Source of the DNA: an uncultured Pseudomonadota bacterium
GTDB lineage: Bacteria > UBA10199 > JADFYH01
Direction: 5' to 3'
Assembly: GCA_964384365.1 (NCBI GenBank)
Contig: CAYLKF010000002.1
Coordinates: 98,840-162,839, forward strand
Length of the DNA stretch: 64,000 nucleotides
In this document: piece by piece, positions 10,606 to 59,625 of the stretch
Numbering within the stretch: position 1 is the first letter of the stretch
Layout of the letters: each line of letters begins with the position of its first letter
Notes under the pieces: model-generated
Database searches by the model: none
Seen by the model: the letters and a program-made list of their open reading frames with translations, nothing else
What the model was told of the DNA's origin: nothing
Program-made: the position numbers and the translations under genes

Positions 10606-10610
10606 GATTT

Positions 10611-10695
10611 ACCTCCCCTCCTTACAAAGGAGGGGATTTAAGGGGAGGTCTCCAATAGGACCTCTCCCTCACCCTCTCCTTTGTAAGGAGAGGGA
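10611..10695. repeat. Tandem GC-rich palindromic hairpin repeats between cysC and cysH
   Basis: cccctcctt-acaa-aggagggg; ggaggtc..gacctc; ccctctccttt-gtaa-ggagaggg. Same family as the copies at 12872-12962, 14230-14252, 16240-16264, 41055-42305 and 59545-59625. Confidence 0.7.
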
Positions 10696-10702
10696 ATAAT
10701 AA

Positions 10703-11308: not shown

Positions 11309-11345
11309 ATTTGCTCCTTTATTTTGAGGGCGCTGTTTAAGCCAA

Positions 11346-11930
11346 TTAAGAAGCCGGCGTCAAGGTCGTCTTCAAAAGATTTGCTTCTTCTGCCGAAAAA
11401 GGGAGTTTTAGAGCCAATAGGCGTGCTTTTTCGCTCATCTTGGCCCAAGTTTTTTGAATAATCGCGGGCATTTTTTCAGGAGGAGTTTTTTTCACAAAAT
11501 CCGAGAATTGGTATTCTAAGAAGACCAAGCAGAGGGCATCTTCCATGGTTTGGGTGTCCGGATCTTTTAAGTTTTTCTTGAGATTGATCGCTTTTACTTT
11601 TTCGATGATCTCTGAATTGTAGTTTAAACTCTTCAAAATTTTTTCGGCTTCGTCCGCATGAAATTGGTAAAGATATTTACGCCATTTTAAATACCCTATT
11701 TTTCCTTCTTCAAAATCCGTACGCGGAATCTCCCAACGTTTAAGGTGCTGACAGCGCGAGGCTAAAAGGAGGGCTTCCGAGGCTTGCGGATTCAATTTTT
11801 TCACCCATTCCGTCAGCCGCTGGGCATAAAGCAGTTCACGCGGATATTTTTTCCCCTGAACGAGTTCTAAATGGGGATCTTGTGAGTTTGCTTCATCGAA
11901 TTTTTCAAAGGCAATGCTAAGATTGGTCAT
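11346..11930 (-). CDS. Conserved hypothetical protein
   Basis: 194-aa ORF upstream of and co-oriented with the cys operon; no motif recognised. Confidence 0.45.
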   Translation of the reverse strand: MTNLSIAFEKFDEANSQDPHLELVQGKKYPRELLYAQRLTEWVKKLNPQASEALLLASRCQHLKRWEIPRTDFEEGKIGYLKWRKYLYQFHADEAEKILKSLNYNSEIIEKVKAINLKKNLKDPDTQTMEDALCLVFLEYQFSDFVKKTPPEKMPAIIQKTWAKMSEKARLLALKLPFSAEEANLLKTTLTPAS

Positions 11931-12016
11931 AGTTTCCCAATAGATTTTAGAGGCAACTTATTCATTCTCATTCCGATAATAGATTAAGGGCATACTTAAA
12001 ATATTCGGAGATTTCA

Positions 12017-12595
12017 ATGAAAGTGAATGATAATTCCCTTATTTCAAAAATTCCAAACTCAATGAATGTGGCTGCTTCTCCTCCCACGCCTGCATCTACT
12101 ATAGGGTCAAAAGATTCTTACGTTTTGTCCGAACAACGTGCTGATTTTTCCGCGCGTCTTAGGCCTGCTCCTAGGCCTCATCCTCGAATTCCTCGTCCCG
12201 TACCCGCACCAACACCTGTCCCAGGTCCTTCTGAAACTCAATGTCCAGAGGGATTGCCAGCCGGGTTTTGGCACGGAGATTTGCAGGTCGATGGACAAAG
12301 TCATCCTCTGATTGTGACTGAAGTCGATATGAGGACCGCAGAAGATGTGTTGCGACAATTACAAGTTTGCGAAAGTACTCCAATGATTGCATTCCGCCAT
12401 ACAGTGTTGGGCCATTCTTATTGGCTCATTATGCCACGTTCCGAATTTCCTGTTTCTTATTCACAAATTTGCAATGGTCAAATCCACAGTATTCGATTGC
12501 TTGGAGCAGGACCAATTCTTACTTTACCCATATCAGGTGCTCAATGTCCTGCGTTATCGGCTTTTGAAGCAAGGGGAGTAGTGTTAAGAAATTAA
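12017..12595 (+). CDS. Hypothetical protein with Pro-rich N-terminal region
   Basis: 192-aa ORF; RPAPRPHPRIPRPVPAPTPVPGP low-complexity stretch, then Cys-containing C-terminal domain; no signal peptide. Confidence 0.4.
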   Translation: MKVNDNSLISKIPNSMNVAASPPTPASTIGSKDSYVLSEQRADFSARLRPAPRPHPRIPRPVPAPTPVPGPSETQCPEGLPAGFWHGDLQVDGQSHPLIVTEVDMRTAEDVLRQLQVCESTPMIAFRHTVLGHSYWLIMPRSEFPVSYSQICNGQIHSIRLLGAGPILTLPISGAQCPALSAFEARGVVLRN

Positions 12596-12639
12596 CTTGG
12601 TATGAGTTTTTTTTAGCCTCCCGCATCGAAACTGTACCC

Positions 12640-12670
12640 TTGACAAGATTAACAAAGAAATTTTATACCC
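12640..12670 (+). promoter_or_regulatory. Putative sigma70-type promoter for the riboswitch-controlled operon
   Basis: TTGACA at 12640-12645, 17-nt spacer, TTATAC -10-like element, about 15 nt before the riboswitch P1. Confidence 0.35.
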
Positions 12671-12685
12671 ATTACACAATTTGTT

Positions 12686-12794
12686 GTCTTATCCAGAGTG
12701 GGTGAGGGAATGGCCCGATGACCCCACAGCAACCGCCTGTAAAGGAAGGTGCTAAATCCATCTCTTCGACGTTGAGTTGAAGGGGAAGATAAGG
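12686..12794 (+). promoter_or_regulatory. SAM-I (S-box) riboswitch aptamer
   Basis: cttatccAGAGtGGgtGAGGGAatGGCCCGATGAcCCCacaGCAACC...GGTGCTAAaTCC...gataag matches the conserved S-box core, with P1 closing pair cttatc/gataag. Confidence 0.75.
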
Positions 12795-12798
12795 AGAA

Positions 12799-12861
12799 AA
12801 CCTCTTCTTGTTCTACGGAGATTCTGGAAAGAAATCTTCGGAATAAGAAGAGGTTTTTTTT
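12799..12861 (+). terminator. Riboswitch expression-platform intrinsic terminator (attenuator)
   Basis: Long imperfect hairpin aacctcttcttgttctacggagattc...gaaatcttcggaataagaagaggtt followed by a T9 tract. Confidence 0.7.
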
Positions 12862-12871
12862 TACCATTATC

Positions 12872-12962
12872 TCCTCCTCTTAAGATTAAGAGGAGGTTGG
12901 GAGGAGTTGTGATCAATGAGTTTTCACAACTCCCCCTGACCCCCTCTTGATCTCAAGAGGGG
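12872..12962. repeat. Three palindromic hairpin repeats in the leader between the riboswitch terminator and the ThrC-like start codon
   Basis: cctcctctt-aagatt-aagaggagg; ggagttgtga..tcacaactcc; ccccctctt-gatc-tcaagaggggg. The last overlaps the RBS. Confidence 0.7.
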
Positions 12963-12984
12963 GAAGTAAAAGGAAAAAGTATTT

Positions 12985-14217
12985 ATGACACTGGTTAAAG
13001 GTTTAAAATGTCGGGAATGTGGCCACGGTTATCCAGTCACTCCTACCCATGTGTGTGAGTTTTGCTTTGGTCCGCTTGAAGTCGATTATAATTACGATGA
13101 AATCAAGAATGCTATTTCTCGGGAGAAAATTCTCTCTCGCCCCAAAACCATGTGGCGTTATAAAGAACTGCTTCCCATTGATCAAGAGCCGACGGTAGGC
13201 CGCTTAGCGGGCTTTACTCCTTTAGTGAAGGCCGATCGCTTGGCCAAGGCTTTGGGGGTGCAAGAACTTTATATTAAAAACGATGCGGTCTGTTACCCCA
13301 CCCTTTCTTTTAAAGATCGGGTGGTTTCAGTCGCACTTTCGAAAGCGAAGGAGTTCGGTTTTAAGGTAGTGGCTTGCGCCTCTACAGGTAATCTTGCAAA
13401 TTCTGTGGCGGCCAATGCAGCCAGTGCGGGCTTAGAAAGCTATGTATTTATTCCCCATGATTTAGAAGCGGGTAAGGTTTTAGGAACTCTCGTGTTTGGC
13501 TCCCACGTGGTGGGTATTCGGGGTACTTACGATGAAGTGAATCGCCTCTGCAGTGAAATTGCCGCCAAATATAAATGGGCGTTTGTGAATATTAACGTTC
13601 GACCTTTCTATGCCGAAGGTTCGAAGAGCTTATTTTTTGAAGTGATTGAGCAATTGGGTTGGAAAGTGCCCAAACATGTGGTGGTGCCGATGGCGAGTGG
13701 TTCTTTGCTTACGAAGGTGCACAAAGCCATTAAAGAATTTCAAAAAGTAGGTTTGATTGACTCCAGCGAGTGTAAAATCTATGGTGCCCAGGCTACCGGT
13801 TGCTCGCCCATTGCAACGGCTTTAAAAAGTGGATGGGATTTGTTTAAACCGGTTCGCCCGAATACAATCGCGAAATCTTTAGCGATCGGAAATCCGGCTG
13901 ATGGGTTTTATGCCATGCTCTCGATGAAAGAGACTGGCGGCTGGAGCGAAGATGTGTCGGATGATGAAATAGTTGACGCCATTAAACTTTTAGCTTCGAC
14001 TGAAGGGATCTTTACCGAAACCGCGGGTGGAGTCACTTTAGGGGTGACTAAAAAATTGATTGAACAAGGGAAAATCCCTAAAAATGAGTCTATCGTGATT
14101 TGCATTACCGGTAACGGACTTAAAACCCAAGAAGCGATTGCCGATAAAGTGGGTAAGACGACGATCATTAATGCCAAGCTTGCAGATTTCGATGCGGTTG
14201 TAGAAACGATGAAATAG
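12985..14217 (+). CDS. Threonine-synthase-family PLP enzyme with N-terminal zinc ribbon; candidate homocysteine-forming MetM-like enzyme
   Basis: N-terminal CxxC..CxxC ribbon (CRECGH...CEFC), fold-type II PLP lysine motif SFKDR, 410 aa. Sits behind a SAM riboswitch next to sulfur-carrier genes, so probably not a housekeeping thrC. Confidence 0.75.
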   Translation: MTLVKGLKCRECGHGYPVTPTHVCEFCFGPLEVDYNYDEIKNAISREKILSRPKTMWRYKELLPIDQEPTVGRLAGFTPLVKADRLAKALGVQELYIKNDAVCYPTLSFKDRVVSVALSKAKEFGFKVVACASTGNLANSVAANAASAGLESYVFIPHDLEAGKVLGTLVFGSHVVGIRGTYDEVNRLCSEIAAKYKWAFVNINVRPFYAEGSKSLFFEVIEQLGWKVPKHVVVPMASGSLLTKVHKAIKEFQKVGLIDSSECKIYGAQATGCSPIATALKSGWDLFKPVRPNTIAKSLAIGNPADGFYAMLSMKETGGWSEDVSDDEIVDAIKLLASTEGIFTETAGGVTLGVTKKLIEQGKIPKNESIVICITGNGLKTQEAIADKVGKTTIINAKLADFDAVVETMK

Positions 14218-14229
14218 ACCTCACCCCAA

Positions 14230-14252
14230 CCCTCTCTTTTGTAAGGAGAGGG
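14230..14252. repeat. Palindromic hairpin repeat
   Basis: ccctctcttt-tgta-aggagaggg, preceded by cctcacccc as in the 10611-10695 copy. Confidence 0.6.
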
Positions 14253-14270
14253 AGATTAGAAGGAGATAAA

Positions 14271-14522
14271 ATGTCTCACAACATTCGACGAAAAGTTTAT
14301 TTAACCTTTCCGGCTACCAAAACCAAAGAAGCGATTATTTGCGATATGTACGATAAATATAAAGTACGATTTAACATTCGCAATTCTTCGGTGACTCAAG
14401 AAGTTGGGATCATTGCACTAGAACTCGAAGCGCCGGAAGATAAGATGAATGAAGCGCTCAAATATTTTGAAAGTCGGGGCGTTTTAGTGGAGCCGGTGGA
14501 GATGGATGTTATAGCGGGTTAA
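14271..14522 (+). CDS. Small conserved protein (ACT/NIL-like ferredoxin-fold domain?)
   Basis: 83-aa ORF with good RBS (aggagat), alternating beta-alpha pattern; function uncertain. Confidence 0.4.
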   Translation: MSHNIRRKVYLTFPATKTKEAIICDMYDKYKVRFNIRNSSVTQEVGIIALELEAPEDKMNEALKYFESRGVLVEPVEMDVIAG

Positions 14523-14533
14523 TCCTCTTACAT

Positions 14534-15412
14534 ATGCAAAAAACAATTCTCGATCATATTGGCAATACGCCCCTTTACCAAGTGAGGATGTTTGAAAAAG
14601 AATTTCCGAAAGTAAAAATTTTCGCGAAGCTCGAATTCAATAATCCCGGTGGTTCGGTAAAAGATCGTCCGGCTGCGCGTATGGTTTTAGAAGGAATCAA
14701 GCGGGGCGACTTGAAACCAGGAAAAATCATCATGGATCCGACCAGCGGAAACACGGGCATTGCTCTTGCAATGATTGGTGCGGCGCTCGGTTATCCGGTC
14801 GAATTGGTAGTGCCTAAAAACGTGAGCCCGCGGCGTAAGGCCGTTGCTCAAAGTTTTGGGGCGAAGCTTACTTTTTCATCCGAGATGGAAGGCTCCGATG
14901 GTGCCATTCGCTTGGCGCAAAAACTCAAAAAAGAAAACTCTGAAAAATATTTTTGCCCCGATCAATATAATAATCCGTTGAATCCTCAAGCGCATGCCGA
15001 AACCACGGCCGTTGAAATCTGGAAACAAACCGATGGGAAAGTTACTCATTTTGTAACGGGGATCGGAACGAGCGGAACTCTAATGGGCACTTCGCGGGGT
15101 TTAAAAGGGTTCAATCCAAAAATTCAAACCTATGCGGTGGAGCCCGCCGATGCGCTCCATGGCTTAGAAGGTTTGAAGCATATGCCCAGCTCCATAGTGC
15201 CCGGAATTTATAAACGCGAAACGGTCGACGGGCTTTTTTCGATTCCCACCGAGCCTGCGTGGGAAGTTTGCGAGCGTTTGGCAAAAGAAGAGGGTATTTT
15301 AGTGGGCCATTCTTCGGGCGCTAATTTATTGGGGGCCGTTGAAGTTGCAAAACAAATTCAAGAAGGAATTGTGGTGACTGTTTTTTGTGATTCTGGGGAA
15401 AGATATTTATGA
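14534..15412 (+). CDS. cysM: Cysteine synthase family (CysM/CysK-like O-phosphoserine/O-acetylserine sulfhydrylase)
   Basis: PLP-lysine motif GGSVKDRPA, Gly-rich PLP loop GIGTSGT. 292 aa. Confidence 0.85.
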   Translation: MQKTILDHIGNTPLYQVRMFEKEFPKVKIFAKLEFNNPGGSVKDRPAARMVLEGIKRGDLKPGKIIMDPTSGNTGIALAMIGAALGYPVELVVPKNVSPRRKAVAQSFGAKLTFSSEMEGSDGAIRLAQKLKKENSEKYFCPDQYNNPLNPQAHAETTAVEIWKQTDGKVTHFVTGIGTSGTLMGTSRGLKGFNPKIQTYAVEPADALHGLEGLKHMPSSIVPGIYKRETVDGLFSIPTEPAWEVCERLAKEEGILVGHSSGANLLGAVEVAKQIQEGIVVTVFCDSGERYL

Positions 15413-15873
15413 TTCAAATTTCGGAGTACGTTTTAAAACAAATTTGTCTGCATGCCGAACGCGAATATCCCAATGAAGCTTGCGGAATGATTATTGGCCC
15501 CGAGCATAAAGAAAACGCGATTGGAGTTTTTCCGATTCGCAATATTCAAGAGGAGTTGCATCAGAAAGATCCTCAAAAATATCCGCGTACTGCCAAAACC
15601 GCTTATTATATGGATCCTGGCCAATTAAAAATCGTGGAAAAAGAAGCGAAGAGTAAAAACTTCGATACCAAAGTGATTTATCATTCGCACCCCGATCATG
15701 AAGTTTATTTTTCAGATGAAGATAAATTAATGGCTGCCCCTTGGGGAGAACCCAATCATCCGGGAGTTTCTTGGATTGTCATTTCAGTTCAGAATGGAAG
15801 AGCTCAGGCCGCCAGTGAATTTTTTTGGGAAGAAGAAAAAAAAGAATATGTGGAGAAGAAATTAAAAATTTGA
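15409..15873 (+). CDS. JAMM/MPN+ metalloprotease (Mec+/CysO-hydrolase-like)
   Basis: JAMM motif YHSHPDHEVYFSDED (HxHx7Sx2D) plus upstream Glu; 4-nt overlap with cysM. Confidence 0.8.
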   Translation: MIQISEYVLKQICLHAEREYPNEACGMIIGPEHKENAIGVFPIRNIQEELHQKDPQKYPRTAKTAYYMDPGQLKIVEKEAKSKNFDTKVIYHSHPDHEVYFSDEDKLMAAPWGEPNHPGVSWIVISVQNGRAQAASEFFWEEEKKEYVEKKLKI

Positions 15874-15917
15874 ATGCTTCGACAAGATCGCCGTGCCCAA
15901 TCGGGGCATCTTAAGGC

Positions 15918-16223
15918 TTGTTGGAGAATGAAAAGGAGAACCTTATGTCAATCAAAGTGAGAATCCCCACCCCCTTACAAAAACTCACTCAAAATCAATC
16001 GGAAGTATCGGTGGAGGCCAAAACTGTTCGTGAAGTGATTCAAAATCTCGAAAAAAACTTTCCGGGAATCCAAGAACGTTTGTGTGATGAAAAAGGAAGT
16101 TTACGACGCTTCGTGAATTTTTATGTGAACGAAGAAGATATTCGTTTTCTTCAAGGAGATGCGACTGCTCTTAAAGCAGGGGATGAAGTGTCTATCGTTC
16201 CTGCGATAGCTGGGGGGAAATAG
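15918..16223 (+). CDS. ThiS/MoaD/CysO-type sulfur-carrier protein
   Basis: About 100-aa beta-grasp-like protein ending ...PAIAGGK. A Gly-Gly plus one residue suits JAMM trimming to expose the GG thiocarboxylate terminus. Confidence 0.7.
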
Positions 16224-16239
16224 TCACAACTCCTCCCCA

Positions 16240-16264
16240 CCTCCTCTTAATCTTAAGAGGAAGG
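16240..16264. repeat. Palindromic hairpin repeat
   Basis: cctcctctt-aatctt-aagaggaagg, preceded by tcacaactcctcccc (compare 12925-12940). Confidence 0.6.
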
Positions 16265-16266
16265 AT

Positions 16267-17448
16267 GTGCAGCGTTGTGAAGTTTTCATGCTTAACCCCG
16301 CACTACTCAAGCTTGAGCTCATTGCGTATGGAATTCATACCGAAGGCGAGGTTCCGCGGCCTTTGGCGAATCCGTTTGGCTTGGTTCATCTTGTTTTGCC
16401 CGAGACTACTGCAGTGAGTGTGCACGAAGTGAAAAGCGAAACGCCTTTTACTCTTTTTAAGAAAAAAGATCGGTTTTATTTAAGAGATAGCCGAAATAAA
16501 AAAGAGATTTCGATTTCGTGGACGCCCCCGCTTCAGAGTTATCAGAAAAAAACTTCTTCTGGGGTTTTGGTTTCCGATATTTTAACTGTTCACGGAGGCT
16601 ATATCGCCGTGCATCCTAAAGGGGCCTGCCGATTTGGAATGAGCGGACTCTCCTGCCGTTACTGCGGTTCTACGCGTGAGCTTTATAAGCATCCTCCCTT
16701 TACGAAAAAAGATCTCATCGAAGCTGTTGAAATTGTCTTGAAAGAAAAGAAATGTGAATTTTTGAATTTTTCATCGGGTCGTGTCGAAACCGAAGATGGC
16801 GGAGTACTCTGGCTTAAACCTTGGGTTGAAGAGATTCGACGTCACTTAGATCTTTTGATTTCACTCGATTTAGTTCCGCCCAAAACCAATGATTGGATTG
16901 ATCAAACTTATGCCATGGGAGTTGATGCGCTTTATTATGATCTCGATTTTTTTAACCCATTAGAAATGGAATCGACCCGGCAATTTCATCTTCAAGAAGA
17001 ACGGCACCTAGAAGCTTTAGCTTATGCCGCCAAGATTTTTCCGAAAGGCGCTGTGCTTTCGCACGTGGTGGTGGGCTTGGAGCCGGTGAAAGAAACCAAA
17101 AAAAAGGTTGATCTTTTATTGCAGCGCGGGGTGGTGCCGGTGCTGGCGTATTTTCCACCCGATTCAACTTCCGATTTAGTAAAAGTTTGGAAAGTAGAAC
17201 CCAAAGAACTCACTTCACTTTATGCGCATCTCTTTGAAGGCTTAGCCAAAACCAAAAACACTCCACATTGGGTGCAACAGCAAGATGTGGTGCTCACTCC
17301 TCTCGAAGGGCGATTTTTTTCCATTCGCTCGCCGGGTCTGCATCTCGCTCTAAAAGAATTTTATCAAACTTCTTTTGGAAGGGGCTTGAGAAGAAGCTTG
17401 GTAGGGGTGCGGCGAAAGTTCAAAAATCCCGCTAAAAATAAGAATTAG
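16267..17448 (+). CDS. Hypothetical protein with Cys-x8-Cys-x2-Cys motif (possible Fe-S/radical-SAM-like), last gene of the riboswitch operon
   Basis: GACRFGMSGLSCRYCGS motif; 393 aa; no canonical CX3CX2C. The start may be the downstream Met (MLNPALL). Confidence 0.5.
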   Translation: MQRCEVFMLNPALLKLELIAYGIHTEGEVPRPLANPFGLVHLVLPETTAVSVHEVKSETPFTLFKKKDRFYLRDSRNKKEISISWTPPLQSYQKKTSSGVLVSDILTVHGGYIAVHPKGACRFGMSGLSCRYCGSTRELYKHPPFTKKDLIEAVEIVLKEKKCEFLNFSSGRVETEDGGVLWLKPWVEEIRRHLDLLISLDLVPPKTNDWIDQTYAMGVDALYYDLDFFNPLEMESTRQFHLQEERHLEALAYAAKIFPKGAVLSHVVVGLEPVKETKKKVDLLLQRGVVPVLAYFPPDSTSDLVKVWKVEPKELTSLYAHLFEGLAKTKNTPHWVQQQDVVLTPLEGRFFSIRSPGLHLALKEFYQTSFGRGLRRSLVGVRRKFKNPAKNKN

Positions 17449-37287: not shown

Positions 37288-38217
37288 ATGATCGCATTTT
37301 TTACCCTGCTTTTCAATCTTCTGTTTGTTTTTTCTGTTTTTGCTCAAACCCCTTTGCAAAATTGCAAAGATGAAAGTTGTTTGAGGGCTGCGGTGCCTTA
37401 CAACTCAAAAACACCGCCCTCTGTGGAGTCTTGTAAAGCGTTAGACGGAAAAAAATCGCCCGGTGATTTTGATGAAGATTTGGGTGTTTTGTGCCGTTTG
37501 GTGATTAGTCGGGCAATCGCTTCGCAGCGAAGTGTGGAAGCTTGTTTGGCGAAAGAAGGTGATCCAAATCCCGATTGGGAGATGGATTTAGATCAAAAGG
37601 CCCTACTCCAATACTATAACAAAACTTTAAGAGAAGCAGCGCTCGCTAAAAAAGGAGTGGGGGCTTTATCGAGTACCAGTGGAGCCAATAACAGCACGAT
37701 TCATGGGAGCTATGTTTATGATCACCAATCGCGCGAAGAGGCTGGGGCCAAGCGAGAGGTTTCTTTTGCCACTTATTTTTGCATTACCGCTTCTCCTCAA
37801 AAACACTATACCCCCTATTTTTCGGTTTTGAAGGTTTCGGGAAAACCGGTGGAACAAAACTCGATTGCAAATCCTCCGAAAGCGGAGCCTGTTCTTTTTC
37901 AGCTTCCTAAAACCGATTTCGATGCGGCTTATGAATTTTATGATTTGAATGGTGATGGAAATAAAGACATCGTGATTTTAAATCGCGATATATTCGAAGG
38001 ATTTGGCTTAAGTGCTTGTTTGTATAAGGCGGGTCAGGCTTCTTGCCAGGAAGTAAAGTCTCCCGATTTTATAAAAGTGGATGAAATGTTTGCCAAAGGA
38101 AAATTAGAAATCAAATCTCCTCGAGAAATTAAGGTTCAATTCAGCAAAGATGGCAAAGTGCTTTCCGATGCGGTTTATGAATATTCGGGGAATAGTTTGA
38201 AGTTAAAGAAGCCCTAA
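37288..38217 (+). CDS. Secreted hypothetical protein with FG-GAP-like Ca-binding loop
   Basis: Signal peptide MIAFFTLLFNLLFVFSVFAQT; DLNGDGNKD loop; several Cys pairs. Confidence 0.5.
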   Translation: MIAFFTLLFNLLFVFSVFAQTPLQNCKDESCLRAAVPYNSKTPPSVESCKALDGKKSPGDFDEDLGVLCRLVISRAIASQRSVEACLAKEGDPNPDWEMDLDQKALLQYYNKTLREAALAKKGVGALSSTSGANNSTIHGSYVYDHQSREEAGAKREVSFATYFCITASPQKHYTPYFSVLKVSGKPVEQNSIANPPKAEPVLFQLPKTDFDAAYEFYDLNGDGNKDIVILNRDIFEGFGLSACLYKAGQASCQEVKSPDFIKVDEMFAKGKLEIKSPREIKVQFSKDGKVLSDAVYEYSGNSLKLKKP

Positions 38218-40580
38218 AGATTAGGTACCACGAAAGGTTCACGACCTTCACGCGCAGCAATTTCTCGTGCAAGCGGTAGCAAGAGTCGATACGCATAAAC
38301 TTTATCGGGGTCTGCCCCATTTTCTTGAAGCTCTAATTGGATCGTGCTCACGAGTGGATTCCAAAAATTTATAAACGAATCTTCTAAACGCGGGTATTCG
38401 CGGCAAAGCTGCCGTAACTTTTCTGCTAAGGCAGGTGTCCAATCTCTCCAGTGAGAGCCATGAGAAAAGAGCAGATACACGACATAGGTTTCCATTCGCA
38501 CAAAACGGGGATCATTCAAACGAGAGCCATCCACTAAAAAAACCTGTAAACCCGAAGGCGACGGTTCTGTAGGAAAATGATTTGTAAGGGGCGGCGGGTT
38601 TCTTAAAGGTCGTCTATAATCTAATCCGTTAAAATAGATTTCTAAAGCCGATCTAAATTCGTTCAAGTGATGCCTAGCCAGGGAGCTCATATCTTCAAGG
38701 AAAAAACCCAAGATTCTATTTTTTTCTCGGAGCGGAATGCTATCGAGAATCCTAAAAAATTCTCCAGGATTTTGACGGAAGTGAGAATAAAAAGAATCGA
38801 TCGCTTGTTTGATTTCTCTTAAGCGTTGTTCATAGATGGGGTATAGGGGCGGGAGATTTCTAAAATTTTGATCGGACCATCGTGCCATCATTCCTAAAAT
38901 AGATCCTTGAAAAGGATATTGATGAGAGTCTGTCGTTAGAAAATCCATTGTGTTCCATAAATCCATATAATTTTCTTGGCTCAGGTGTCTTAATTGTTCT
39001 GGATTTTGGAGAATTCGCAGAAAGGTCTGAAAACCCGGGCTGAATAAACCCTGAAGCGCCTGTTCTGTTCGGTGTCGAATCAGAAGACTATGTTCTTGGC
39101 TTCTGGGGTTATATAATCCAAGAAAAGTTCTCCGTTCTCCCTTATTCAGGAAAACCCAGCCCTGAATTGGCCTTCTTTGTTCATCGAGAAGAGGCAAGAT
39201 GGGAAAAGAGAGCTTCTCCATGATTTTTCTATAAAGATTTCCATTTTCCTCAAGTTCCGAGACGAGCAGGGTAGGATAGGGAGGTGTTTCAGGTGCCTCC
39301 GAGTTTCCAGCTCCATTTATAAAATCAGGAATCGATAGACGAGTTCTCTCAGGCGGTAATCTTCCCGTGGGGTTAAAAAGTCGCGCGGAATATGGGAGCC
39401 AGAATAATTCCCCTCGCGGAGTGTGGCTTACTTCTAAAGGAACATCGCCTTGATGAGGAAGCCGGCAAGGCGCAAGTAGAAGTGCTTCTTCTTCAATCGG
39501 AGGAACGATCCCCTGAGAAAGTAAAAAAGCATAGGCAAAAATTTCTTCTGCGTAGGTGGGTGCTTGAATTTCTGTATTTTCTTCTCCACTCATTAAATTG
39601 GTATTGAAAGAAGTATCGCCTTGTAAACTTACCGGCTGAATATGATCGGCGAAAAGATTTAAGGCGCGTGTTTCTCCGGGAACGTCTGCGTGTTGCCGGT
39701 GGAGTGTAGCCACCATGAATTGGCTATTGGCCTGACAAGCTCCCCCGATTGGAATCCCCAAAGCGGGAGGAAATAGAAAACCCCGCATATAAGGATTATC
39801 GCGCTCGTAAGAATCAATCGAAGAATTCAAGAAAAGTTGAATGATGATTTGATTGCGGCGCTCTAAAGAAGTTAATCCCGGAGCGGGGCGAATTCTAGCC
39901 AAAATTTGATCAAAGTCGCTGGAGAAAGTGAAGTTTTGGCCTGCAGGGAGTTGTGGCAAATTGGCTAGATATTGGGTCTCTAAAAAAAATCGACCATAAT
40001 CAAAAGAGGGATCTCGTCGATGACGACTGTAATTGATAAGTAATCGTCTCGCTTGTTCAATTTGCCTTGCATAACGGGAAGGACTCGGAGCTGTTTCTTC
40101 GGGCTGAAGTCCTCCCGAAGCCAATGCCACGGTGCCTGCTCCCCCTACAAAAGCGGCTAAGATTCCGACTCCGACTTCGAGAGCAACGGCAAATCCTCCT
40201 CCCACCCCTCCCGTTGCGCAAGTGAGGGCGATGCCCACTTGTGCACGCTCGGCACCATTTTGAGTGAGCTCGGTGTAACGATTCCAAAGCTTTTGGGCTT
40301 CCAAAAGGTGTTGATAGCTTGTGTTTAAATGGAGGGCCACTTCGTTGAGGTGGTTTCCTGCTAGATCAGCTTGAAGTGATCTAATTTCTCGCCTGCTTTG
40401 ATCAAGTAGATGCCGTAATGCAGCGGCATTATCTGCATTTTCTCCAAACGTGAAAAAATCAGAGACTTGTTGAACAAAAGATGGATGAGCGACGTAACGC
40501 GCTTCAAGTTCTTCTAATCCCTGTAATTCGTGCTGTAGAGCTTCCACACGATGGGTCAAAATTTGACGTAAAGTAACCAT
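38214..40580 (-). CDS. Large (788 aa) hypothetical protein with internal glycine-zipper hydrophobic segment
   Basis: Long uninterrupted ORF; G/A/V-rich segment GIALTCATGGVGGGFAVALEVGVGILAAFVGGAGTVALASGG; no enzymatic motif recognised. Confidence 0.6.
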   Translation of the reverse strand: MVTLRQILTHRVEALQHELQGLEELEARYVAHPSFVQQVSDFFTFGENADNAAALRHLLDQSRREIRSLQADLAGNHLNEVALHLNTSYQHLLEAQKLWNRYTELTQNGAERAQVGIALTCATGGVGGGFAVALEVGVGILAAFVGGAGTVALASGGLQPEETAPSPSRYARQIEQARRLLINYSRHRRDPSFDYGRFFLETQYLANLPQLPAGQNFTFSSDFDQILARIRPAPGLTSLERRNQIIIQLFLNSSIDSYERDNPYMRGFLFPPALGIPIGGACQANSQFMVATLHRQHADVPGETRALNLFADHIQPVSLQGDTSFNTNLMSGEENTEIQAPTYAEEIFAYAFLLSQGIVPPIEEEALLLAPCRLPHQGDVPLEVSHTPRGELFWLPYSARLFNPTGRLPPERTRLSIPDFINGAGNSEAPETPPYPTLLVSELEENGNLYRKIMEKLSFPILPLLDEQRRPIQGWVFLNKGERRTFLGLYNPRSQEHSLLIRHRTEQALQGLFSPGFQTFLRILQNPEQLRHLSQENYMDLWNTMDFLTTDSHQYPFQGSILGMMARWSDQNFRNLPPLYPIYEQRLREIKQAIDSFYSHFRQNPGEFFRILDSIPLREKNRILGFFLEDMSSLARHHLNEFRSALEIYFNGLDYRRPLRNPPPLTNHFPTEPSPSGLQVFLVDGSRLNDPRFVRMETYVVYLLFSHGSHWRDWTPALAEKLRQLCREYPRLEDSFINFWNPLVSTIQLELQENGADPDKVYAYRLLLPLAREIAAREGREPFVVPNL

Positions 40581-40639: not shown

Positions 40640-42436
40640 TTACGGCTGTTTTTCTAGAATTTTATGCCGTTGGAGTTTCCCATTCGCCGTTTTAGGGAGA
40701 CTTTTTACGAAATAAATCTGTTTCGGGCATTTATAGGCCGAGAGTTTTTTTTCGCATTCTTTTTTGATTTGTATTTCTAAATTTTCATCGGCTTCAAAAT
40801 CGGATTTCAAAACTAAAAAAGCCGTGACTAAAGTTTTGCCTGCTTCGATTTCTTTTCCAATCACGGCGGATTCTTCAATTTCGGGCATTGCATTCAAAAC
40901 CGTTTCGACTTCGAGGGGAGAGATGCGATAGCCGCCTGCCGTAATCACCTCATCGCGCCGGCCTAAGAAAAAGAAATTTCCGCTCTCGTCTTTTTGGGCG
41001 AGATCGCCGCTGAGGAAGTAATCATTTTTAAATCCCTCCACACCTCCCTTTACAAAGGGAGGGGGGGAAGTGTTTCCTCCTTTTGTAAAGGGGGATTCAG
41101 GGGGATTTTTTCGATAATATCCTAACATCAAGCCCGTGCAGGAAACATGCGTAGCGAGAATCCCAGGAGTATGGGGAGGTAGTTCTTTTCCTTCTTCATC
41201 CACAATCTCTATTTTCTGATCGGGCAAGGCTTTACCACAGGAGCCTTTCACAATTTCTTCGCCCACGCGCTGTACCAGATAAACACTATGTTCACTCATG
41301 CCTAAGCCTTCGTAAATCTCAAGTTCGGTGTAATTTTTAAATTTTTCACGAATTTCTTCGGGCAGTTTTTCGCCGGCGGAATTGCAAATGCGAACTCCAT
41401 CAAACCCCACCTTTATCCTCCCCTTGATCTCAAGGGGAGGTGGGGAGGGGTTTAGCTCAAAATATTCGACCAAGCGTCGATAAATTCCGGGCACGCTCAT
41501 GAAGGTTGTGATTCCAAATTGTTTGATGAGTTGGCAAATTTTTTCGGCGTTTAAAGGGCCATTGTAAATTAAGGTGGGGAGCCCGTGCCGCCAAACATCG
41601 AGCAGGCCTGCGGTGAGGGCGTAGCTCCAATTGAGGGTACTGGTGTTAAAAATTACATCATTGAAACGGAAATCGTTCCAAAGCTTTGCGCGTGTATCGT
41701 GAGCGGGAATACTGCGGTGCGCATGAATCACTGCTTTGGGTTTTCCTTCGGTGCCGCTCGTATAAAGCCAAAAGGCAGGGTCGTTTGCCTGAGTGGGTTC
41801 CGTTTGAAATTGAGAAGAAGAATTTTTTAAGAGATCTTGGAAACGGAGGACAGACCGCCCCCCGTCCCCCTTCTTGGTAAGGAGGGGGAGGAGAGACGCC
41901 GGAGTAATGCAAAGAATGTATTTTAAAGAAGGGAGAGAATTTTTCAGAATTTCTTTGGGGAATAATTCTTCCGTTGTAACCAGCACACTCGCTTCACTAT
42001 CTTCCAAAATAAATTTTAATTCATCTTCTGTCGCTTGAACGGAACTTGGAATCGGAATGATGCCTGCTTTGATTGCTCCTAAAAAAGTGATGGGAAATTC
42101 GGGAGAATTCGGAAGTCGCAAAACAAGCCTTTCTCCTTTTTGAAGCCCTAAATTTTTTAAGGCATTCGCAATTCGATTGGTCAGGCCTTCAAGATTTGAA
42201 AATGTGAATTTTTTGATTTCCAAGCTTCCTCCCTTTTGTAAAGGGAGGTCAGGAGGAATTTTTTGATCGAGAAATCCCCCTGTATCCCCCTTTTCCAAAG
42301 GGGGAGAGAGATCTTTCACATAAATCAATGCAGGCTTATGTTTGTTGTGGGGCGACTGCGCGTTTTTATCGATGCAATCGAGCGCAATGTTGTAAGAATT
42401 GAGCATAGCTCCCTCTAGCGGGCTTTGGGCTTGCAT
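40640..42436 (-). CDS. AMP-dependent synthetase/ligase (acyl-CoA synthetase) carrying four in-frame palindromic-repeat insertions
   Basis: Adenylate-forming motifs YTSGTEGKPKAV, GYY..P, SGDL, GRRDEVI..GGYRI, PKTANGKLQR. Extra peptides TKGGNTSPPPFVKGG, PSPPPLEIKGRIKVG, TKKGDGGRS and EKGDTGG...LPLQKGGS coincide with the DNA palindromes. Confidence 0.85.
   Translation of the reverse strand: MQAQSPLEGAMLNSYNIALDCIDKNAQSPHNKHKPALIYVKDLSPPLEKGDTGGFLDQKIPPDLPLQKGGSLEIKKFTFSNLEGLTNRIANALKNLGLQKGERLVLRLPNSPEFPITFLGAIKAGIIPIPSSVQATEDELKFILEDSEASVLVTTEELFPKEILKNSLPSLKYILCITPASLLPLLTKKGDGGRSVLRFQDLLKNSSSQFQTEPTQANDPAFWLYTSGTEGKPKAVIHAHRSIPAHDTRAKLWNDFRFNDVIFNTSTLNWSYALTAGLLDVWRHGLPTLIYNGPLNAEKICQLIKQFGITTFMSVPGIYRRLVEYFELNPSPPPLEIKGRIKVGFDGVRICNSAGEKLPEEIREKFKNYTELEIYEGLGMSEHSVYLVQRVGEEIVKGSCGKALPDQKIEIVDEEGKELPPHTPGILATHVSCTGLMLGYYRKNPPESPFTKGGNTSPPPFVKGGVEGFKNDYFLSGDLAQKDESGNFFFLGRRDEVITAGGYRISPLEVETVLNAMPEIEESAVIGKEIEAGKTLVTAFLVLKSDFEADENLEIQIKKECEKKLSAYKCPKQIYFVKSLPKTANGKLQRHKILEKQP
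41055..41115. repeat. Palindromic repeat pair inside the acyl-CoA synthetase CDS
   Basis: cctcccttt-acaa-agggaggg and cctcctttt-gtaa-aggggg. Confidence 0.7.
41404..41445. repeat. Nested palindromic repeat inside the acyl-CoA synthetase CDS
   Basis: ccccacc...cctcccctt-gatc-tcaaggggagg...ggtgggg. Confidence 0.7.
41850..41895. repeat. GC-rich palindromic repeat inside the acyl-CoA synthetase CDS
   Basis: ccgccccccgtcccccttc-ttggtaa-ggagggggaggag. Confidence 0.6.
42228..42305. repeat. Palindromic repeat pair inside the acyl-CoA synthetase CDS
   Basis: cctccctttt-gtaa-agggagg and tccccctttt-ccaa-aggggga. Confidence 0.7.
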
Positions 42437-47891: not shown

Positions 47892-50800
47892 TTGAGGACA
47901 CCTTGTGAATTTGTGAATATTGGAATTCCAAAAACTGAAAAGCGGTTGAGTTGGGTGCTGGGAGATTCTCGGCCCGATTTGTTGCGAGAAGAAACCCTTG
48001 CCCAAATCTTCCGAGAGACAGCCCAGGCTTATCCTGCCAAGACCGCCCTTTTTTTTCAGGAGAAATCTTTAACTTATGAAGAGCTCGATCGTTGGAGCGA
48101 TACGGTTGCGTTGGAGCTTGCGAGGCGAGGGGTTGGTCGGGGTGCGACAGTAGGGGTGTGGTGGCCTCGGAGCTTAGAGCTCCACGTGGCGATTTTGGGA
48201 ATCGTCAAGTCAGGAGCGGCTTATGTGCCTCTTGATCGTGAAATGCCCGCTGACCGCGTTTTGACCGTGCTGGCCGAAGTGGGGGCCGCCGCATGTTTTA
48301 GCGATGAAATTCTAGAGAGTGTTTGCCCGGTTTTGAAAGTGCCTGAGCCGTCTCCTCAAATTACGAAAGCAGAGCTTCCTGTAGGACCTTCTCCAGAAGA
48401 TTGGGCTTATGTCCTTTATACGTCGGGGAGTACGGGCAAGCCCAAAGGGATTCCCATTACTCAACGGCAAATTTGTCATCTCGTTCGTTCCGAACAAAGT
48501 ATTTTAAATATTCAAAACCAAGATAAGGTTTACCAGGGTTTTTCGGTTTCTTTCGATATGTGGTGCGAAGAAACCTGGATCAGTTTTTTGGTGGGAGCTA
48601 CACTTTGGGTGGCCGATTCAACCACAGCCAAATCGCTAGATGAGCTGGGCGAAATTCTCCGTAAAAATCAGATTACCGTGCTTCATGCGGTTCCAAGTTT
48701 ATTGGCGATCATTGACGATCAAATTCCTTCGATTCGTTTAGTCAATGCGGGAGGGGAGGCCTGCACTCCACAGGTTTTGGCAAAATGGGCCAAATCGTCG
48801 CGTCAATTTTTTAATACATATGGCCCCACCGAAACAACAGTTACGGCGACTCTTGCGCCCTTGAAAAGGGGAGATGAAATTACCATCGGCAAACCCTTGC
48901 CCAATTATGGTTTGGCCGTGGTGGACGAACAACTGAATCTTCTTCCTTGTGGAGAGCGCGGAGAATTAGTCATTTCGGGCCCAGGAGTGGGGGGGGGCTA
49001 TATCAACAGGCCCGAGCTTACTCGAAATTGTTTTCTCCCAAAACCGGAGGCGCTTCATTTACTTCCTGGAAATAAAATTTATCGAACCGGCGATGCAGCT
49101 TTCATCAATGAACAAGGCGATATTTTTGTGCAGGGGCGCTTTGATGATCAGATTAAGCTTCGTGGCTATCGAATTGAACTCGGTGAGATAGAAGTCTGTT
49201 TAAATCAACTCCCTTTTGTTTCAAGTGCAGCGGTCGCCGTAAAAAAAGATAAAGAATCGACCGATCATTTGGTGGCCTATCTTGTTTTGGAAACGGGAAA
49301 AACTTTTGATGAAATTCAGGCCCGTCATCTACTTGCCGAGCATTTGCCGGTTTATATGATTCCCAATTTGTTTGTGACGCTGAGCAAGATGCCTTATTTG
49401 CCCAGCGGAAAAATCGATCGTAAATCGCTTCCGGCTCCCGAAGTGCTTAATCAAGCCCAAGAGAAGACGAAAAATTTTGAGGCGAATGCTTCTGTTCAAG
49501 AACGGGTGCTGTGGGTTTTAAATCAAATGTTTCCAAATCGGCCTATAGAGTTAGAAGAAGATTTTTTCGATGATTTAGGCGGACACTCCCTTTTGGCGGC
49601 CGAATTTGTTTCTCGGCTTCGTGAGGCGAAACTGAATTATGCTTCGATTAAAGATGTTTATCTCCACCGCCCTCTGTCGAATCTTTTGAAAGAATGGGAG
49701 ACGAAAAAAACAGATTCTAAAATCTCAGGTGCCGCTTACCAGAAAATTTCGAATGGGCGTTATCTTTTTTGCAGCATCGCTCAAACTTTTGCCTTGCTTT
49801 TTGTTTATGGGCTCTTCGCTTTTCAAATTTTCTTACCTTATGTTTCTTATTATTATGTTTTGCAAGATACTTCGAGTCATGTGTGGGGCATTGTTGCTGC
49901 ACTTTGCTCTTTTTGCTTGGTCCCTCCGATTTTTATTACCATTACCATTCTAACAAAGTGGCTAGTAATTGGCCGAATTCGCCCTGGAGATTATCCGCTT
50001 TGGGGCTGGTATTATTTTCGCTGGTGGCTTTTCAAAGCCGTCCAAAAACTCACACCAGTTGAGTATATTAATGGAACGCCGATCTATCCCCTGTATTTGC
50101 GTTTGCTTGGAGTGAAGGTGGCATCCGATGCCCAATTAAGTGCGTTTATCATTGGCGCAGAAGATTTGGTTACCCTTGGAAAAGATGTGAGTATTAGCTC
50201 AGGAGTTGTTTTAAATAATGCGGTGGTTGAAGGCGGGCTTTTAAAACTGCGCTCCGTTCATCTTGCCGACCATGCCTATATTGGAACCAGTTCAGTGATT
50301 GGCGGAGACTGCAAAATTGAAGAATGGGGAGAGCTCAAAGATTTAAGTTTTTTGCGTCCGGGTACTCGGGTAAAAACTTGTGAAGTTTGGGGAGGAAGTC
50401 CGGCAGAACGGGAATGCACGAAAACGCTTGAAGAATTGCCTCAGCCTTTAGAAGTTTCTTTTCAAACACGTCTGAAATATAGCGCCATTTTTTTGCTTCT
50501 TCTTCTTTTGTTTCCTTTCAATGTTTTGCTTCCCCTTTTGCCGAGCATCATTATTTTGAATGAACTCGATACTGCAGCTCCCGATTATAATTTCAATTAT
50601 TTGGTGATTACGCCTCTCTTAGCAGCGAGCTACGTTTTGCTCTTTGCTTTGGAGGTGGTGATTTTTTCGCGGATCATTCTCAAAGACTTAAAACCAGGAA
50701 CCTATTCTCTCTATAGCAAGCTTTATATTCGTAAGTGGTTTGTAGATCAGTTAATCACTTTATCGCTCTATGTGCTGCATCCTGCCTACGCGACGGTCTA

Positions 50801-51878
50801 TGTTTCGAGCTTTTACCGAGCCCTGCGTGCGAAGATTGGAAAGCGCACCGAGATTTCAACGGCCAGTGAAGTGACTCATTGTCTTTTAGAGGTTGGAGAA
50901 GGAGCTTTTGTGGCCGATGCGGTTACTTTGGGTGAAGATGATGTGCGAGCTCAGCAATTTACCCTCAGCCAAACAACGATTGGAAGCAATAGCTTTGTAG
51001 GAAATAGTGCGCTGATTCCCCAAGGCTATCATTTACCCAGCGATATGTTGGTGGGAGTTTTATCGGTACCGCCCACGCCAGAGCAACTTCGCAACTCTTC
51101 GGCAAAAAATTGGTTTGGTTCTCCGGCGATTCCGCTTCCGAGGCGCCAGGAGAGCGGAAATTATCCGGCAAGTTTAACGACGCATCCTTCTCACAAAAGA
51201 AAAATTGTTCGTGGAGTGATTGAGTTTCTACGGCTTTTGGTTCCTTCAACGGTCTTGATGTGTTTGAGTGTGGTTTTTATTGCGTATGTGCATGATTTGG
51301 TTGTTGATGGGAGCTGGTTGGAATTATTTTTACAATTTCCTTTTTACTATATTGGTTTCGTGGGGCTTCCTTGTTTCTTGGTTGTGGTGCTTCTTAAATG
51401 GATTTTGATTGGAAAATATAAAGTGCTTCAAACCCCCATGTGGACTTCAAAAGTCTGGCGAACAGAAGCCATTACTGCCATCTACGAGGCGCTTTCGGTG
51501 CCTTTTCTCCTTGAATATTTAAAGGGGACCCTCTGGCTGCCTCTTGCCTTGCGTTTGCTGGGAGTTAAAGCTGGAAAACGGGTTTGGCTGAATACGACGG
51601 ATATCACCGAATTTGATTTGGTAAGTATTGGAGACGATGCGGCTCTCAATGAAGATAGTGGCCCCCAAACTCATTTGTTTGAAGATCGTGTGATGAAAAT
51701 AGGATCGGTGGATATTGGTGAAAGAGCTAGTGTCGGGGCTCGAACTGTGGTTTTATACGAGAGTAAAGTGGGCAACGAAACGGTTTTGGAGCCTTTGTCT
51801 TTGGTGATGAAGGGTGAAAATCTTCCTTCACAGTCTCGTTGGGGCGGAAGCCCCGTAAGGCCCGTTTCAGCTTCTTAG
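47892..51878 (+). CDS. Single-module NRPS-like homopoly(amino acid) synthetase with epsilon-poly-L-lysine-synthetase (Pls)-type architecture: A domain, T domain, then three tandem soluble repeats each flanked by TM pairs
   Basis: A-domain cores LKSGAAYVPLD, LYTSGSTGKPKG, NTYGPTETT, YRTGD, GRFDDQIKLRGYRIELGEIE, PSGKIDRK. PCP core FFDDLGGHSLLA. The C-terminal half shows a triplicated unit (KWLVIGRIRPGDYPLWGWYYFRWW, KDLKPGTYSLYSKLYIRKWF, KWILIGKYKVLQTPMWTSKVWRTE, each followed by a hexapeptide-like beta-helix segment) separated by pairs of TM helices. No C or TE domain. TTG start. Confidence 0.8.
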   Translation: MRTPCEFVNIGIPKTEKRLSWVLGDSRPDLLREETLAQIFRETAQAYPAKTALFFQEKSLTYEELDRWSDTVALELARRGVGRGATVGVWWPRSLELHVAILGIVKSGAAYVPLDREMPADRVLTVLAEVGAAACFSDEILESVCPVLKVPEPSPQITKAELPVGPSPEDWAYVLYTSGSTGKPKGIPITQRQICHLVRSEQSILNIQNQDKVYQGFSVSFDMWCEETWISFLVGATLWVADSTTAKSLDELGEILRKNQITVLHAVPSLLAIIDDQIPSIRLVNAGGEACTPQVLAKWAKSSRQFFNTYGPTETTVTATLAPLKRGDEITIGKPLPNYGLAVVDEQLNLLPCGERGELVISGPGVGGGYINRPELTRNCFLPKPEALHLLPGNKIYRTGDAAFINEQGDIFVQGRFDDQIKLRGYRIELGEIEVCLNQLPFVSSAAVAVKKDKESTDHLVAYLVLETGKTFDEIQARHLLAEHLPVYMIPNLFVTLSKMPYLPSGKIDRKSLPAPEVLNQAQEKTKNFEANASVQERVLWVLNQMFPNRPIELEEDFFDDLGGHSLLAAEFVSRLREAKLNYASIKDVYLHRPLSNLLKEWETKKTDSKISGAAYQKISNGRYLFCSIAQTFALLFVYGLFAFQIFLPYVSYYYVLQDTSSHVWGIVAALCSFCLVPPIFITITILTKWLVIGRIRPGDYPLWGWYYFRWWLFKAVQKLTPVEYINGTPIYPLYLRLLGVKVASDAQLSAFIIGAEDLVTLGKDVSISSGVVLNNAVVEGGLLKLRSVHLADHAYIGTSSVIGGDCKIEEWGELKDLSFLRPGTRVKTCEVWGGSPAERECTKTLEELPQPLEVSFQTRLKYSAIFLLLLLLFPFNVLLPLLPSIIILNELDTAAPDYNFNYLVITPLLAASYVLLFALEVVIFSRIILKDLKPGTYSLYSKLYIRKWFVDQLITLSLYVLHPAYATVYVSSFYRALRAKIGKRTEISTASEVTHCLLEVGEGAFVADAVTLGEDDVRAQQFTLSQTTIGSNSFVGNSALIPQGYHLPSDMLVGVLSVPPTPEQLRNSSAKNWFGSPAIPLPRRQESGNYPASLTTHPSHKRKIVRGVIEFLRLLVPSTVLMCLSVVFIAYVHDLVVDGSWLELFLQFPFYYIGFVGLPCFLVVVLLKWILIGKYKVLQTPMWTSKVWRTEAITAIYEALSVPFLLEYLKGTLWLPLALRLLGVKAGKRVWLNTTDITEFDLVSIGDDAALNEDSGPQTHLFEDRVMKIGSVDIGERASVGARTVVLYESKVGNETVLEPLSLVMKGENLPSQSRWGGSPVRPVSAS

Positions 51879-59544: not shown

Positions 59545-59625
59545 AACCCCTCACCCTACCCCTGGTTCGACAGGCTCACCACGCCGTCTCCCCAGAGGGG
59601 AGAGGGTGAAGGGGAAAGGTATGTC
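59545..59625. repeat. Palindromic repeat element upstream of the Kir channel gene
   Basis: cccctcaccctacccc ... tctcccc-aga-ggggaga-gggtgaagggg; related to the cctcaccc/ccctctcc family. Confidence 0.55.

Follow-up and report, generated by a model that had tools for sequence, protein, structure and literature searches.

How does a gene for an adenylate-forming enzyme come to carry four GC-rich hairpin repeats, each read through in frame? We addressed this question with an acyl-CoA synthetase gene (hereafter, the ligase) in a 64-kb stretch of DNA, "the window" below, from an uncultured Pseudomonadota bacterium (GTDB lineage UBA10199; GenBank assembly GCA_964384365.1, contig CAYLKF010000002.1, positions 98,840 to 162,839). 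A sequence-only reading of the window had likened the repeats to Rickettsia palindromic elements (RPEs) and proposed either strong tolerance or neofunctionalisation. We consider it very probable that the four segments are repeats akin to repetitive extragenic palindromic (REP) sequences and REPINs, which landed in permissive loops of the enzyme and were tolerated there.

The ligase is one open reading frame (ORF) of 598 aa from its first ATG, and it runs without interruption, as had been claimed. Its real start is probably the second Met, at 42406, which gene callers use and which yields the 588-aa protein P0001. The ANL superfamily is defined by an N-terminal AMP-binding domain plus a C-terminal domain, a P-loop of the form (T/S)SG(T/S)xGxPK, an SGD motif, a hinge GRxD, and a C-terminal catalytic Lys, and the ligase has all of them. 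It matched the Pfam families AMP-binding (PF00501, E = 4.6e-66) and AMP-binding_C (PF13193, E = 4.8e-18), and its best PDB match was an acetyl-CoA synthetase (9g79_B, E = 9.7e-58). Furthermore, an alignment of 21 homologues showed invariant residues in the P-loop (T226, S227, G228, T229, G231, and K234), the SGD motif (S476 and D478), and the hinge (G492, R493, and D495), as well as the C-terminal K587. None of these catalytic motifs is touched by the four inserts. No NCBIfam equivalog cut-off was reached (best, NF003313, with 282 bits where 729 are required), and we therefore assign the ligase no substrate class. The ratio of nonsynonymous to synonymous substitution rates (dN/dS) was 0.18 and 0.14 against the syntenic orthologues at loci L001 and L002, respectively, which indicates that purifying selection is acting and that the gene is not in decay.

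We then counted hairpins in the gene, defining a perfect hairpin as a stem of at least 8 bp with at least 50% GC and a loop of 2 to 8 nt. The ligase contains four, whereas dinucleotide shuffles of the gene averaged 0.08 and never exceeded 2 (0/500 shuffles reached 4). The whole window has ten perfect hairpins, eight of which belong to a C-rich type, and the ligase accounts for four of the eight. In the insert 1 doublet, the two units lie on either side of a GGAGGAATTT...AAATCCCCC stem, and the translation, PLEKGDTGGFLDQKIPPDLPLQKGGSLE, adds 28 aa. Insert 2 is a single unit, TCCCCCTTCTT-GGT-AAGGAGGGGGA, with one mismatch in its stem, translated within LLPLLTKKGDGGRS and adding about 8 aa relative to short homologues. 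Insert 3, CCTCCCCTTGA-TC-TCAAGGGGAGG with the tails AAACCCCACC ... GGAGGGGTTT on either side, is translated as NPSPPPLEIKGRIKVG (+11 aa). Insert 4, AAATCCCTCC-aca-(CCTCCCTTT AC AAAGGGAGG) ... (CCTCCTTTT GTA AAAGGGGG)-attca-GGGGGATTT, is translated as KNPPESPFTKGGNTSPPPFVKGGVEGF (+18 aa) and lies between the GYY (A6) and SGDL (A7) motifs. When the segments that form gaps in the homologue alignment were back-translated, aa 46-73 corresponded to 42218-42301, aa 186-188 to 41873-41881, aa 335-344 to 41405-41434, and aa 449-469 to 41030-41092. The extra peptide thus coincides with the hairpin repeats at all four sites. The sequence-only reading had placed a GC-rich hairpin repeat at each of four positions, and hairpins lie at or adjoin all of them; the extra peptides that it quoted are all present in the translation. 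Its description of four separate repeats is right for the sites and wrong for the units, inserts 1 and 4 being two-unit doublets, and the sizes given above do not agree with the uniform inserts of 14 to 20 aa that it had expected.

The earlier claim that the same family occurs between genes also held. A unit consists of a C-rich tail (e.g., AAATCCCCC or ACCTCTCCC), 2 to 5 nt, and then a hairpin with a stem of 9 to 11 bp, a 5' arm of the form CCYCCYYTT(R), and a loop of 2 to 4 nt; its reverse complement reads as a hairpin followed by a G-rich tail. We found 14 units at nine loci of the window, four intragenic and five intergenic, with about half of the units inside the ligase; they are alignable over about 40 nt with a mean column identity of 62%. 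Insert 1 and the intergenic doublets at 10606-10702 and 12866-12972 are inverted, tail-to-tail doublets of 85 to 105 nt with the same module order (hairpin, G-tail, spacer, C-tail, and hairpin). The loop TGT/ACA occurs in inserts 1 and 4 as well as at intergenic positions 10672 and 14230, and the loop TTGATCTCAA is common to insert 3 and the 12866-12972 doublet (at 12940). The intergenic copies fill short gene-to-gene spacers (Table 1). Units were searched for with an nhmmer profile; a MAFFT alignment shifted the register of hairpins with unlike loop lengths and therefore provided no valid consensus structure for a covariance model. With the profile, no additional convincing copy emerged from the window, where the single candidate (1212-1239) was weak, and neither the profile nor a peptide search of the 64 kb found a repeat copy or a PPFxKGG-type peptide in any other gene. 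An Rfam search returned no family for the repeat.

Table 1. Host gene and copies of the repeat in the window
Feature	Coordinates	Strand	Evidence	Details
Host gene, ANL-superfamily acyl-CoA synthetase	40640..42436	-	ORF; Pfam PF00501 and PF13193	
Insert 1, tail-to-tail doublet	42218..42311	-	Units 42225-42262 and 42271-42308	Hairpins 42228-42248 and 42285-42305
Insert 2, single unit	41854..41892	-	nhmmer, E = 1.1e-5	Hairpin 41865-41889
Insert 3, single 11-bp hairpin with both tails	41402..41453	-	Hairpin search	Hairpin 41417-41440; outer stem arms at 41402-41453
Insert 4, head-to-head doublet	41030..41108	-	Inverted repeat, 33-nt arms, 79% complementary	Hairpins 41043-41062 and 41076-41094, inside the larger inverted repeat (outer stem) 41030-41108
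Intergenic doublet	10606..10702		nhmmer, E = 4e-7 and 2e-6	Fills the spacer between PAPS-reductase and APS-kinase genes
Intergenic doublet	12866..12972		Unit profile	Between SAM riboswitch and PALP-enzyme gene (start 12985)
Intergenic single unit	14217..14254		nhmmer, E = 1.3e-7	
Intergenic single unit, subfamily of 12866-12972	16227..16263		nhmmer, E = 2e-5	
Intergenic single unit, more divergent	59582..59616		nhmmer, E = 0.03	Upstream of K-channel gene starting near 59622

Four of the five intergenic copies cluster at 9853-17448, in a single sulfur-assimilation/cysteine-type gene cluster that encodes a PAPS reductase, an APS kinase, two PALP enzymes, and a JAB-domain protein. The sole Rfam match in the window lies there as well: a SAM riboswitch (RF00162, 84 bits; region 12686-12972) is followed by a terminator-like T-run and then by the second doublet, which thus sits in the leader of a riboswitch-controlled operon, ahead of the regulated PALP-enzyme gene.

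Next, we looked into how the inserts are distributed among homologues of the ligase, using alignments of 21 and then 115 full-length sequences, and in both the segments proved to be lineage specific. Inserts of at least 7 aa occur at just five positions, in 3, 16, 8, 1, and 9 of the 115 homologues, and none of the other homologues has all four window sites filled. The sites are short loops in most of the 115, as the sequence-only reading had supposed, except that the linker holding insert 2 is hypervariable in length (the 16 homologues just mentioned). Loci L001 and L002 have the same gene neighbours as the window, with a VWA gene upstream of the ligase and a two-component pair beyond, and their ligases (86% and 71% aa identity, respectively) are therefore orthologues. 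Insert 1 is present in L001 with 2 synonymous differences and is replaced in L002 by a clean 84-column gap in the DNA alignment. Insert 2 is common to the window and L001; its stem is perfect in L001 and is disrupted by a nonsynonymous change in the window. Insert 3 is absent from both orthologues, and insert 4 is missing from L001, which keeps a short, decayed version of it; at sites 3 and 4 of L001, only short, weakly palindromic sequence is left. L002 has hairpins of its own, unlike those of the window, at sites 2 and 4, that at site 4 being a different doublet. Other palindrome sequences occupy the same loops in L002, L202, L203, and L204, and the predicted fold of each of these inserts is much more stable than those of segments drawn at random from the same gene. 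At the fifth site, the L202 orthologue (11040-11125) contains a different palindromic repeat, GTCACCCCTGCGAAAGCAGGGG ... ATTCCCGCTTTCGCGGGAATGAC, which is translated as SIVTPAKAGGQWSQRDSRFRGND and is of the TPAKAGGQ...SRFRGND type; the L204 insert is a long GC-rich hairpin. The palindromic remnants at "empty" sites of close relatives suggest that old copies were turned over or replaced, in addition to new ones being inserted.

The window and L001 (10001-11671) also differ from each other in a mosaic fashion, with 0 to 5 differences in every 90 nt at alignment columns 91-810 and 14 to 22 in the vicinity of inserts 3 and 4, which suggests recombination or local turnover around polymorphic inserts. 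Synonymous divergence was considered as a measure of constraint on the element, insert 1 having 2 differences in 31 codons compared with about 10 expected from the gene average. We rejected this measure: across the whole 5' half of the ligase, the window and L001 resemble each other just as closely, so the low divergence of insert 1 is uninformative about the element.

To place the inserts in the protein, we built an AlphaFold2 model from the alignment (predicted template-modelling score, 0.83). In this model each of the four inserts is a coil that joins two regular elements and is predicted to lie in a surface loop; the flanking elements are strands 35-42 and 72-78 for insert 1, helix 180-187 and strand 195-198 for insert 2, helix 316-328 and strand 349-352 for insert 3, and strands 425-430 and 473-482 for insert 4. 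The predicted local distance difference test score is below 50 at residues 48-68, 332-341, and 437-466, which correspond to inserts 1, 3, and 4. Moreover, relative to 9g79_B, the ligase has insertions of 9, 10, and 15 residues of its own at sites 2, 3, and 4. Within each unit, one arm is pyrimidine rich and the next purine rich, so stop codons can occur only close to the loop. Of the six frames, 2 to 5 are open in the intragenic copies, whereas the two full intergenic doublets are stopped in 6/6. This difference is the pattern expected if a selective filter acted on random insertions. The frame that is read also differs by site (SPPLEKGD and SPFTKGG versus LPLQKGG), which, together with the open-frame pattern, argues against a dedicated peptide encoded by the element.

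We performed a similar analysis of location outside the window by searching contigs from metagenomes for perfect matches to the hairpin CCTCCCTTT-N2-4-AAAGGGAGG. This variant had at least 124 matches in at least 120 metagenome stretches, with GC contents of 0.31 to 0.63. Among the 124 matches listed, 10 are deep inside open frames of at least 150 codons and 114 are not, suggesting that the default location of the repeat is intergenic. One of the 10 is inside a recognisable domain: at L158, a HIT-domain protein (2323-2874, + strand) contains the hairpin at 2641-2660, in frame within the domain (NPSQPPFAKGGDKSHP), and of the 124 matches listed this alone is convincing as an intragenic insertion. 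Two other open-frame matches were set aside, that at L148 as a chance match in an integrase and that at L171 because the hairpin is upstream of the domain and not inside it. In addition, a chorismate-binding enzyme at L202 (14203-15558, - strand) has two in-frame copies, with repeats at 15021-15065 and 15335-15380 and the insert peptides KNPPSCPPFIKGGLGGF and KSPQPPFYKGGPRGIS (the pair also being given as KSPQPPFYKGGPRGIS and KNPPSCPPFIKGGLGGFENI). Other genes of related genomes have thus been invaded too. A 47-aa probe of concatenated repeat peptides retrieved no candidate proteins in a database search.

These results fit an account in which the repeat normally resides in short intergenic spacers and its copies would occasionally land in coding DNA. 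Selection would purge insertions that shift the frame, add a stop codon, or hit structured protein, and the copies that survive would sit in permissive surface loops and be passively translated, their CCN, GGN, AAR, and TTY/CTN codons giving Pro/Gly/Lys/Phe-Leu peptides of the type PPFxKGG. The ligase would offer about five such loops, repeatedly filled with turnover in related lineages, four of them being occupied in the window copy. The peptides are, on this account, probably translated and merely tolerated; we found no evidence of a new function for the inserts, and thus, of the two alternatives first proposed for them, it is tolerance that our data support. The alignment, repeat, and structure checks suggested with the sequence-only reading all favoured it, and neither of the observations that would have contradicted it was made, namely, the same segments in unrelated taxa or DNA repeats lying apart from the extra peptides.

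Several points weigh against this account. The insert peptides are predicted translations. No transposase, Y1/RAYT or other, is among the approximately 50 ORFs of the 64-kb window, a negative result with which a single-copy RAYT elsewhere in the genome would be compatible. The repeat has no GTAG/CGTC tag, and a comparison of filled and empty sites, the flanks of which have diverged, shows no clear target-site duplication, so its mobility is deduced from distribution only. The weak GC-rich palindromes at the "empty" sites 3 and 4 may mean that some of the differences between relatives reflect replacement or decay and not fresh insertion. Lastly, four intragenic sites in one gene far exceed what uniform insertion would give, and tolerance may be an incomplete account of them.

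This last point leads to the alternative that survives best, in which the ligase is itself a hot spot or its repeats have been co-opted. As a hot spot, it would be targeted by the repeat machinery through older hairpin remnants or through a strand of the gene exposed during transcription or replication; as a case of co-option, the Pro/Gly/Lys loops or the mRNA hairpins would have acquired a function, for example as a flexible lid, as a regulatory site, or in translational pausing. A single 1.8-kb gene contains all four of the intragenic sites in the 64 kb and about half of the window's units; the same loops are occupied in many lineages; the "empty" sites of close relatives hold palindromic remnants; and recurrent REP tagging of particular genes has been described across species (PMC3733652). 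Most or all C-rich hairpins of loci L001, L002, L003, L007, and L015 are inside the orthologous ligase as well, but those loci were all fetched because they contain the ligase, and the comparison of hairpin locations is thereby biased. The inserts vary in sequence, repeat type, frame, and presence among close relatives, which speaks against a conserved function at the peptide or RNA level, and the change that disrupts the stem of insert 2 in the window relative to L001 is nonsynonymous. The chorismate-binding enzyme at L202, with its two copies, shows that the ligase is not the sole target. We therefore regard this alternative as quite improbable. Its broader version, in which the ligase would be a preferred landing site for hairpins across the candidate phylum, guided by remnants or strand exposure, with some loops or mRNA hairpins co-opted, seems unlikely to us. 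If it were true, the ligase would be a natural record of repeat-driven loop evolution and not a carrier of neutral passengers.

The segments could also be ancestral protein sequence that is palindromic by chance and has been lost in other lineages, and sites 2 to 4 do hold some insert in several relatives. However, these sites are short loops in most of the 115 homologues, the occupants of the loops are nonhomologous across lineages, spacers between genes contain the same DNA units, and an orthologue as close as L001 (86%) lacks two of the four inserts, all of which make ancestral origin barely credible. An assembly or binning artefact, with repeats collapsed or chimerically joined in a metagenome-assembled genome, is just as hard to credit: the source is evidently uncultivated and represented by assemblies, which repeats are notorious for disrupting, but the frame is kept at all four sites, inserts 1 and 2 recur nearly base for base in L001, an independent JGI metagenome contig from a diverged strain, and the identical protein P0001 is recorded from two sources, NCBI and Logan.

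Having favored REP/REPIN-like repeats tolerated in permissive loops, we compared them with known systems. Intragenic REPs have been reported from several phyla as singles or dimers that encode 20 to 30 aa, with up to two per ORF and recurrent target genes (Di Nocera et al. 2013, PMC3733652). The repeats described here resemble them in being short GC-rich stem-loops (stems of 6 to 13 bp and loops of 2 to 5 nt in that study), in being found either singly or dimerised head to head or tail to tail, and probably in being mainly intergenic, a smaller share of copies lying entirely within the ORFs of known enzymes and being read in frame (PMC3733652). They differ in that the C-rich tail of the unit repeats the 5' arm, in having four sites in one gene compared with the two reported per ORF, and in their host, an acyl-CoA synthetase of an uncultivated lineage as opposed to a DNA-repair gene. 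The GTAG/CGTC tags, which define the two published REP super-families (PMC3733652), are absent from the stem foot at 12 of 13 hairpins here, a single CGTC adjoining insert 2. With respect to what characterizes REPs in general, the repeat is a short (20 to 40 nt) imperfect palindrome in many interspersed copies, and of the metagenome matches listed, 114/124 are not deep inside long open frames; 4/9 loci in the window are intragenic.

The REPIN concept takes the REP doublet as the replicating unit (Bertels and Rainey 2011, PMC3116915). Insert 1 and the intergenic doublets at 10606-10702 and 12866-12972 are, likewise, inverted doublets with a spacer that form a long predicted hairpin, and the family is interspersed in extragenic space. 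Unlike REPINs, which are described as extragenic, doublets are predicted to be translated here; furthermore, the window contains no RAYT gene, and the tetranucleotide that RAYTs recognize is missing. In-frame palindromic insertions were first described as RPEs (Ogata et al. 2000, 2002, summarised in PMC10969869), and the analogy drawn in the sequence-only reading is sound insofar as RPEs are in-frame palindromes in unrelated metabolic genes, compatible with fold and function, and are also present in noncoding DNA. Membership does not follow: RPEs are approximately 100 to 150 bp long, with one conserved, fixed-frame peptide per family, whereas the untagged units here measure approximately 35 to 40 nt (doublets, 85 to 95 nt), at least two reading frames are used (PPFxKGG and LPLxKGG), and the host is evidently not Rickettsia. 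A resemblance to miniature inverted-repeat transposable elements with in-frame ORF fusions (ERIC, QMITE1, and those of Anabaena; PMC10969869) lies in their being small, nonautonomous, mostly intergenic, and occasionally a source of in-frame peptides. Those elements are much longer than ours, for which no terminal inverted repeats derived from an insertion sequence (IS) or target-site duplication was recognised (the flanks having diverged) and for which the window revealed no parent IS. The repeats are thus best called a new, untagged REP-like family, set apart from RPEs by their described size and frame. In our search of the literature on UBA10199, we found no paper treating repeats.

In-frame palindromes inside proteins are already known, and the novelty of this locus is mainly their density per gene, which is above any that we found reported, in a family without the known GTAG/CGTC tags. 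Translated selfish palindromes are best known from Rickettsia; here, palindromes predicted to be translated are present in a lineage that is uncultivated and has relatives recorded as Deltaproteobacteria or UBA10199. The orthologue series amounts to a natural map of permissive sites in an adenylate-forming enzyme, in which five loops take 7 to 30 extra residues of unrelated origin, and such a map can be of use to annotators and to those who engineer loops. For annotation there is a warning as well, because Pro/Gly-rich "low-complexity" inserts in metagenome-assembled proteins can be repeat DNA and not evolved protein.

Two further genes of the window are described for completeness. A 788-aa ORF directly downstream of the ligase (38214-40580, - strand) matched nothing in NCBIfam. 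L001 and L002, syntenic in other respects, lack this ORF and have a 308-aa gene immediately after the ligase. Farther away, at 47892-51878 (+ strand), a 1,328-aa protein contains the terminal domain of Pls/PosA-family non-ribosomal peptide synthetases (TIGR02353, 635 bits, above the cut-off) and also has an adenylation domain.

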